A stretch of 368 bases of DNA from a phage. The notes under the pieces were generated by a model. It was not told where the DNA came from and searched no databases. It saw nothing but the letters and a program-made list of their open reading frames with translations. The DNA is taken from the sequence record L00023.1; one strand, given 5' to 3'. The translations under genes and the position numbers were made by a program. Of the stretch, positions 1-368 are shown one piece after another (the first letter of the stretch is position 1; every line of letters starts with the position of its first letter).

Positions 1-82
1 TCAAACACCAGCACGGTGGGACGTGGTTCAGAAGGTGTAGCTGCCAGACAAGGTGTATTCCCGTCTGCAGGTTGGTAGCCAT
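1..82 (-). CDS. murI: Glutamate racemase MurI, N-terminal fragment (5' partial; continues beyond window start); reading frame interrupted by an apparent 1-nt indel near 62-67
   Basis: Minus-strand ATG at 82-80 gives MATNLQ. After a one-base frame jump the translation continues DGNTPCLAATPSEPRPTVLVF to the window edge, matching the N-terminus of E. coli MurI as recalled. An alternative in-frame ATG lies at 94-92 (MRQSMATN...). No strong Shine-Dalgarno is evident. The murI start overlaps the btuB 3' end by about 56 nt, as known for this locus. Confidence 0.6.
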   Translation of the reverse strand, partial: MATNLQTGIHLVWQLHLLNHVPPCWCL

Positions 83-122
83 AGACTGTCTCATAATCTT
101 TGTCGAACAGGTTGGCTATTTT
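28..122 (-). CDS. btuB: TonB-dependent vitamin B12/BF23/colicin E outer-membrane receptor BtuB, C-terminal fragment (about 31 codons), cut off upstream at the phage junction; same apparent 1-nt frameshift as murI
   Basis: Minus-strand translation from 122 downward gives KIANLFDKDYETVYGYQPA. After a one-base frame shift it gives REYTLSGSYTF and a TGA stop at 30-28. This matches the recalled BtuB C-terminus and the typical TonB-dependent receptor terminal beta-strand ending in Phe. The reading frame is broken at about 123-128 by lambda core sequence (in-frame TAG at 128-126). Confidence 0.65.
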
Positions 123-129
123 ATACTAA
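115..129. other. Hybrid att core (attL-like crossover region): GCTATTTTATACTAA, 14/15 identical to the lambda common core GCTTTTTTATACTAA; overlap region TTTATAC at 120-126
   Basis: Direct match to the recalled lambda core. The single mismatch (A at 118 where lambda has T) lies in the left core-type half-site. Sequence to the right is lambda P' arm; sequence to the left is btuB/murI, not the lambda P arm. Confidence 0.8.
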
Positions 130-133
130 GTTG
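125..133 (-). promoter_or_regulatory. Core-type Int binding site C' (bottom strand CAACTTAGT)
   Basis: Plus-strand ACTAAGTTG at 125-133 is the reverse complement of CAACTTAGT, which fits the lambda core-type consensus CAACTTNNT, at the right edge of the overlap region. Confidence 0.7.
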
Positions 134-154
134 GCATTATAAAAAAGCATTGCT

Positions 155-167
155 TATCAATTTGTTG
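155..167 (+). promoter_or_regulatory. IHF binding site H' of the lambda P' arm
   Basis: TATCAATTTGTTG matches the IHF consensus WATCAANNNNTTR and sits between core and arm-type sites, as in lambda attP/attL. Confidence 0.7.
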
Positions 168-174
168 CAACGAA

Positions 175-205
175 CAGGTCACTATCAGTCAAAATAAAAT
201 CATTA
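175..205 (+). promoter_or_regulatory. Arm-type Int binding sites P'1-P'2-P'3 (tandem, about 10-bp spacing)
   Basis: AGGTCACTAT (176-185), CAGTCAAAAT (186-195) and AAAATCATTA (196-205) resemble the arm-type consensus (C/A)AGTCACTAT. Exact site boundaries are approximate. P'3 overlaps the int stop codon. Confidence 0.75.
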
Positions 206-368
206 TTTGATTTCAATTTTGTCCCACTCCCTGCCTCTGTCATCACGATACTGTGATGCCATGGTGTCCGACTTATGCCCGAGAAGATGTTGAGCAAACT
301 TATCGCTTATCTGCTTCTCATAGAGTCTTGCAGACAAACTGCGCAACTCGTGAAAGGTAGGCGGATCC
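203..368 (-). CDS. int: Lambda integrase Int (tyrosine recombinase), C-terminal 55 codons plus stop; 5' partial, continues beyond window end
   Basis: Minus-strand translation from 367 gives DPPTFHELRSLSARLYEKQISDKFAQHLLGHKSDTMASQYRDDRGREWDKIEIK with stop TAA at 205-203. This matches the recalled lambda Int C-terminus. By the standard lambda Int numbering (356 aa), the active-site residues are His308 (352-350), Arg311 (343-341), His333 (277-275) and the nucleophile Tyr342 (250-248). Confidence 0.93.
   Translation of the reverse strand, partial: DPPTFHELRSLSARLYEKQISDKFAQHLLGHKSDTMASQYRDDRGREWDKIEIK

Follow-up and report, generated by a model that had tools for sequence, protein, structure and literature searches.

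A lambda attL-type junction at a secondary site in btuB, about 40 bp upstream of the essential gene murI

The window, by which we mean the whole stretch of 368 nucleotides analysed here (sequence record L00023.1), almost certainly contains the attL-type (B-O-P') end of a phage lambda genome that was inserted by Int at a secondary site in btuB. The insertion interrupts btuB at codons about 583-585 of 614 (MG1655 4,165,384-4,165,390), so that BtuB is truncated, while murI keeps its full coding sequence. Along the minus strand the parts follow one another as int 3' end, P' arm, hybrid core, and btuB 3' end/murI 5' end, and int and murI are therefore co-directional. The sequence-only reading had put the start of the essential gene murI about 40 bp from the phage junction, which agrees with the 36-41 bp measured here for the ATG at 82-80. 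It had also proposed that the native DNA upstream of murI was exchanged for the P' arm and int, and the sequence matches bear this out. On balance, we consider it probable that the murI transcript would be of phage-derived origin. The junction itself is an ordinary member of a well-known class, the lambda secondary-site attL, and this kind of construct is already known. The analysis thus describes no new system and raises no new broad question; its main value is clarification, and caution on chimeric reference sequences.

Positions 115-368 match phage lambda (J02459, 27724-27977) with 99.6% identity in a megablast search, the single mismatch being a118. The lambda core is annotated at 27724-27738, and the match runs colinear with lambda from the core via the P' arm into int. 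The P' arm occupies 130-202 (with no strand assigned), equivalent to lambda 27739-27811 and colinear with attP. It contains, at 155-167, the sequence TATCAATTTGTTG, which we take to be the IHF H' consensus of attP. The int 3' end lies at 203-368 on the minus strand, and consists of the C-terminal 54 codons and a TAA stop at 205-203, as judged from the lambda match and the lambda CDS annotation. In the lambda record int is annotated at 27812-28882, and the end of the CDS at 27812 is position 203 of the window. Read on the minus strand, the window opens within a reading frame whose translation ends in RDDRGREWDKIEIK followed by a stop, which is the int C-terminus. The last six bases, GGATCC at 363-368, are the lambda BamHI site inside int.

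The remainder of the window is bacterial. Positions 1-123 match the btuB/murI overlap in 5,426 of 5,426 complete E. coli genomes. The murI 5' coding sequence is found at 1-82 on the minus strand and extends beyond the stretch. Its ATG at 82-80 is the start annotated in MG1655 (b3967; L002 2429), while the alternative ATG at 94-92 is the older, upstream one. Both had been picked out in the sequence-only reading, and both are indeed present, co-directional with int and just past the core. The same strand carries, at 28-123, a detached btuB 3' fragment (codons about 585-614) that ends in a TGA stop at 30-28. In MG1655, btuB ends at L002 2484 and murI starts at L002 2429, giving a native overlap of 56 bp, a figure that is also given in a ribosome-profiling benchmark paper. 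The arrangement in the window is the same, allowing for a missing base described below: the murI start at 82-80 is inside the btuB 3' end, with the btuB stop at 30-28.

The sole native DNA left upstream of murI is therefore the segment 83-118 (minus strand), which belongs to the coding part of btuB (codon about 585 and beyond). Ahead of the ATG at 82-80 there are 36 bp of unambiguously native DNA, or up to 41 bp if the TTTTA shared by both partners is included; ahead of the ATG at 94-92 there are 24-29 bp. Within this short segment there is a Shine-Dalgarno-like GAG at 92-90, 7 nt ahead of the ATG at 82-80. Everything upstream of btuB codon about 583 would have been shifted to the far (attR) end of the prophage, as had been argued before, and both the geometry and the logic of that argument are right. 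An in-frame fusion of lambda sequence to murI was considered and is ruled out, since the sequence has a TAG stop in frame with murI at 118-116.

The hybrid 15-bp att core is at 115-129 (again with no strand assigned), and reads GCTAT-TTTATAC-TAA, where the middle block at 120-126 is the overlap region. A three-way alignment in the same orientation compares it with the lambda core, GCTTT-TTTATAC-TAA, and with native btuB, GCTAT-TTTACCA-CGA. Position 118 is the last base that is solely bacterial and position 124 the first that is solely lambda, the intervening TTTTA at 119-123 being common to both. This shared TTTTA takes in the first four bases of the overlap TTTATAC, and the crossover is therefore placed at the left side of the 7-bp overlap region. 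The question of chance is limited here to the crossover, since there is one single junction and no statistical pattern, and the crossover falls exactly within the 15-bp att core. It is worth adding that positions 120-126 keep the lambda-type overlap TTTATAC, whereas the native btuB overlap, TTTACCA, has three mismatches on the right side. Recombination therefore ran across a heterologous overlap, and the attL product kept the phage allele.

The btuB host site agrees with the lambda core at 9 of 15 bases, very unevenly distributed (8/9 on the left and 1/6 on the right). A partial motif match is normal for lambda secondary sites. The secondary-site motif derived from 304 off-site integrations consists of T at -1, -2, -3, -5 and -6, C at -7 and -10, and A at +5 and +6 (PMC5605937). 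The native btuB site, GCTATTTTACCACGA, has six of these nine positions (T-1, T-2, T-3, T-6, C-7 and A+6), and additionally has T-4 and A0.

In these respects the junction resembles other lambda secondary-site lysogens, which likewise have the crossover in the 15-bp core, a T-run with C-7 and partial core identity, and in which a coding gene is interrupted and host DNA is joined to an intact P' arm and int. The type studies of lambda Int insertion at non-attB sites are said to be those of Shimada, Weisberg and Gottesman. What distinguishes the present insertion from such lysogens is its position directly upstream of an essential gene. Off-site lambda integration has been surveyed by next-generation sequencing, and the btuB 3' site is not among the 304 sites found, whereas a site in the btuB 5' leader is listed (Tanouchi and Covert 2017; PMC5605937). 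Taking the leader site in the survey (L002 about 566-606) together with the 3' site described here, Int can therefore use at least two secondary sites in btuB.

If transcription is to reach murI from the phage side, it must not be stopped on the way. Transcripts of int in native lambda run through P', core and P as far as tI/sib, the element of sib retroregulation. On the native lambda leftward strand, about 180 nt past the core, there is a hairpin, ATTAGCGCAAG...CTTGCGCTAAT, followed by U6; folding of this P-side hairpin (L001 about 455-410) gives -23.7 kcal/mol with a z of -5.8. We take it to be tI/sib. It is absent from the window, as the sequence-only reading had noticed: the hairpin sits on the P side, and the P arm and what lies beyond it are replaced by btuB DNA.

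The further suggestion, that nothing obvious would stop int transcripts ahead of murI, was also upheld, the terminator scan being empty and the structure weak. The scan, which used a terminator consensus, found no terminator-like site between the int stop and murI, and the 156-nt RNA from the int stop across to murI is no more structured than its shuffles (z -0.32). The sole two hairpin-plus-U motifs in this interval reach -4.6 and -1.0 kcal/mol, compared with -23.7 kcal/mol for tI/sib. One is an AU-rich hairpin at the int stop and the other an AAGC/GCUU mini-hairpin followed by U6; both were ruled out as terminators, being too weak. The former (195-215 on the minus strand; -4.6 kcal/mol, z -2.3) is an 8-bp hairpin made up entirely of A-U and G·U pairs, which overlaps the int stop, is followed by UUUU and is native to lambda.

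The possible starting points of transcription were then considered. Besides a consensus promoter scan, the minus strand was scored with a sigma-70 position-weight model and compared with shuffles; the scores of this model are approximate. The minus-strand promoter prediction that had been put forward in the sequence-only reading disappointed. No sigma-70 candidate on the minus strand is above chance, the best reaching 8.44 bits, a score that is equalled by 68% of the segment shuffles, and the real btuB promoter scores 9.65 in the same model. The best candidate, ATGACA-16-CAAAAT at 216-243 (minus strand), lies inside the int 3' end, is native to lambda and has a predicted start at about 209. 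Another, TTTTTA-16-TAAAAT at 118-145 (minus strand), spans the junction, scores 8.10 and has a predicted start at about 111. Its -10-like TAAAAT at 123-118 is present only in the hybrid when this is compared with lambda, which has TAAAAA there; btuB supplies the T at 118. There is also a perfect -10 hexamer, TATAAT at 141-136 on the minus strand, which has no -35 at a workable spacing. Since none of these candidates is above chance, a promoter in the P' arm or at the junction is indistinguishable from readthrough out of the int region, and no specific promoter can be named.

On the bacterial side there is little to choose from. The sole candidate in the retained native DNA, TCGACA-17-TATGGC at 106-78, would start downstream of the ATG. 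The native btuB-internal candidates TTGATA-16-TACTGT (L002 2108) and TTATCA-16-TATGAT (L002 2256) have unremarkable scores, and any native btuB-internal promoter for murI would in the lysogen be displaced anyway. No experimental transcription start inside btuB was found, the SMRT-Cappable-seq and Kim 2012 supplements having no entries for murI or btuB. On the plus strand, at 100-127, a promoter-like TTGTCG-16-TATACT lies across the junction and points antisense into int; a similar element of native lambda, TTTACG-18-TATACT, has its -10 in the same position (L001 584-613).

Several published observations bear on whether murI relies on transcription arriving from upstream. Price et al. described btuB and murI as overlapping and co-transcribed, in an operon that arose by deletion (PMC1480536). 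A 2025 study likewise treats btuB-murI as one operon, and reports that promoter and RBS mutations upstream of btuB raise the transcript about 300-fold (PMC11841063). In a TraDIS analysis, Tn5 insertions in the btuB/murI overlap have an orientation bias of about 10-fold, which the authors put down to transcription supplied by the transposon; the same preprint notes that the btuB knockout is missing from the Keio collection (bioRxiv 10.1101/2025.12.01.691526). Neither Goodall 2018 nor the 2024 btuB riboswitch paper mentions murI. On the basis of this indirect published support, murI appears to depend on transcription from upstream, and it is therefore reasonable to suppose that in the lysogen it is transcribed from prophage DNA. 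The Tn5 insertions offer a close parallel, being at the same locus and tolerated where the transposon supplies murI with transcription. They differ in that the transposon carries a constitutive resistance-gene promoter, whereas the prophage inserted here, of 48.5 kb, has its outward transcription repressed in the lysogenic state.

We therefore propose the following, as a model. Neither in the lysogen nor in its descendants, the transducing phage and the plasmid, would murI be coupled to the btuB promoter and its B12 riboswitch; it would depend instead on weak, essentially constitutive transcription running leftward from a start in lambda DNA. This start may lie within the AT-rich P' arm or at the junction, with TATAAT (141-136) and the hybrid TAAAAT (123-118) as possible elements. 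Alternatively, transcription could come from the int region, starting either at ATGACA-16-CAAAAT (243-216) or at basal pI. We lean slightly, and no more than slightly, towards the P' arm or junction over the int region. The transcript would cross the core unimpeded, because the tI/sib terminator would now be at the other end of the prophage. Translation would start afresh at murI's own Shine-Dalgarno-like GAG (92-90) and ATG, and the small amount of glutamate racemase made in this way would be enough for growth.

Leftward int transcription is expected to be very low in a repressed lysogen, where CI holds pL down and where pI, which depends on CII, is nearly silent as well. Starts in the P' arm have poor -35 elements, and could be blocked by IHF and Int, the usual occupants of attL. 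Counting against a phage-derived murI transcript are the lack of any above-chance promoter, the TATAAT that has no usable -35, and the frameshift in murI as written. A more specific version of the proposal, that integration itself made a hybrid promoter in which TAAAAT (123-118) lies below the AT-rich P' arm, is in our opinion unlikely. If it were true, the promoter would have the Int core site on one side and the IHF H' site on the other, murI expression would be set by the nucleoprotein complex at attL, and peptidoglycan synthesis would be coupled to the state of the prophage junction.

The reading of host genes from a prophage across attL is a classical idea and already known. The closest precedents are the gal and galT::lambda systems, where the host gene is again co-directional with int and immediately beyond B-O-P', and where tI/sib has again been moved to the other prophage end. 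Shimada and Campbell reportedly used galT::lambda lysogens in 1974 to isolate int-constitutive mutants. The difference is that the gene read in those systems is a non-essential reporter, which gives a strong signal upon induction or in int-c mutants, whereas here the basal level of the repressed state would have to suffice for an essential gene. Enhancement of gal upon lambda induction has also been cited, and has been attributed to escape replication and to N antitermination in trans (PMC2147009).

No copy of the exact junction turned up among 5,426 E. coli genomes or in PLSDB, GTDB (at one genome per species), IMG/VR and the JGI metagenomes; it arose once, in the laboratory. Measured from the BamHI site in lambda, across the junction and as far as the chromosomal BamHI site in murB, the distance is 245 + 5 + 7,258 = 7,508 bp. 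The murB site (L004 7345-7350) is the only one within 10 kb, and the resulting fragment carries murI, rrsB-gltT-rrlB-rrfB (rrnB) and the 5' part of murB. This fits the 7.5-kb BamHI rrnB fragment of lambda rifd18 in pKK3535 (GenBank J01695). The two would have in common the end at the lambda int BamHI site and the size, which is 7,508 bp in the reconstruction; the present record also shows old-style sequence discrepancies. Brosius et al. are said to have cloned the 7.5-kb BamHI rrnB fragment of lambda rifd18 as pKK3535 in 1981, and the parent of lambda rifd18 was reportedly a lambda lysogen in bfe (= btuB) that Kirschbaum and Konrad isolated in 1973. The presence of rrnB on lambda rifd18 is stated in the title of a reference, and pKK3535 carries the whole rrnB operon. 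Most probably, then, what was sequenced was a BamHI fragment cloned from a transducing phage. Where such a phage is defective but has kept int, its B-O-P' junction comes unaltered from the parental lysogen, and we therefore infer that a viable lysogen with this junction existed.

The bacterial part of the sequence contains two discrepancies. One G is missing next to position 65 (64-66), where the minus strand reads CTGCA-GACGGG and all 5,426 genomes have CTGCAGGACGGG. The missing G shifts the murI frame after codon 6, giving MRQSMATNLQTGIHL... instead of MRQSMATKLQDGNTP..., and if real it would make this copy of murI non-functional. It is probably a sequencing error, of the kind made in reading old gels; this is the simplest explanation because the gap is impossible in a lysogen's only copy of murI. 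In addition, position 71 is a G (C on the minus strand), which changes murI codon 4 from AAA to AAC (Lys4Asn) and is found in one of the 5,426 genomes (strain ESDR8). The change reflects either an uncommon polymorphism in the strain used or another reading error.

The same features could be read in a different way, namely that no cell ever had to live with this junction, which would belong only to a clone or a transducing phage where murI could be dispensed with or even be defective. The last bases of the stretch are indeed a cloning site (BamHI, 363-368), none of the genome, plasmid, viral and metagenome collections examined contains the junction, and murI as written is frameshifted. Nevertheless, we regard this as improbable, since the B-O-P' of an int-keeping transducing phage would come from a parental lysogen, in which murI was the sole copy. 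The idea that the 1-bp frameshift is real, perhaps selected on a multicopy plasmid, would remove any puzzle about expression and is equally doubtful: the G in question is present in all 5,426 genomes, it is in a G-rich run typical of gel-reading errors, and a frameshift would be impossible in the lysogen.

Two other explanations would make the prophage irrelevant, or would relieve the junction copy of murI of its task, and both are considerably less likely still. The former is that murI has its own promoter wholly inside the retained native DNA (83-123). The native -10-like TAAAAT (123-118) is indeed kept, but native btuB has no -35 at 15-19 bp from it and no native candidate that reaches a score of 6; moreover, the retained 36-41 bp is too short for a -35, a -10, a leader and a Shine-Dalgarno sequence, and the Tn5 orientation bias argues that murI needs incoming transcription. 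The latter is that the lysogen survived by means of a second functional copy of murI, in a btuB-murI tandem duplication or a merodiploid. Insertions near essential genes are commonly tolerated by way of duplications, and the stretch is compatible with this; we nevertheless give it very little credence, because murI, its Shine-Dalgarno sequence and its ATG are intact after the insertion and a simpler route therefore exists, and because correctly oriented transposon insertions in the same area are viable according to the TraDIS preprint. Transcription of murI from the phage side is thus the reading that we prefer.

On this preferred reading, with the lysogen presumed to have been viable, the junction would make a clean textbook case of a prophage that sits 40 bp ahead of an essential gene and yet gives a viable lysogen. 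It would show that murI gets by on very little transcription, and that the ends of a prophage can serve as portable promoters of low strength.

There is also a practical consequence. The stretch is a chimeric laboratory sequence, and its phage part must therefore not be counted as native DNA upstream of murI and rrnB. The junction (L004 88-92) is 975-980 bp upstream of rrnB P1 (L004 1032-1070). Two promoters, P3 and P4, are said to have once been reported about 1 kb upstream of P1. Given the distance of the junction from P1, promoters mapped about 1 kb upstream on this clone would be in lambda or junction DNA, and P3 and P4, if they were mapped on this cloned DNA, may be phage or junction sequences and not native E. 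coli promoters.
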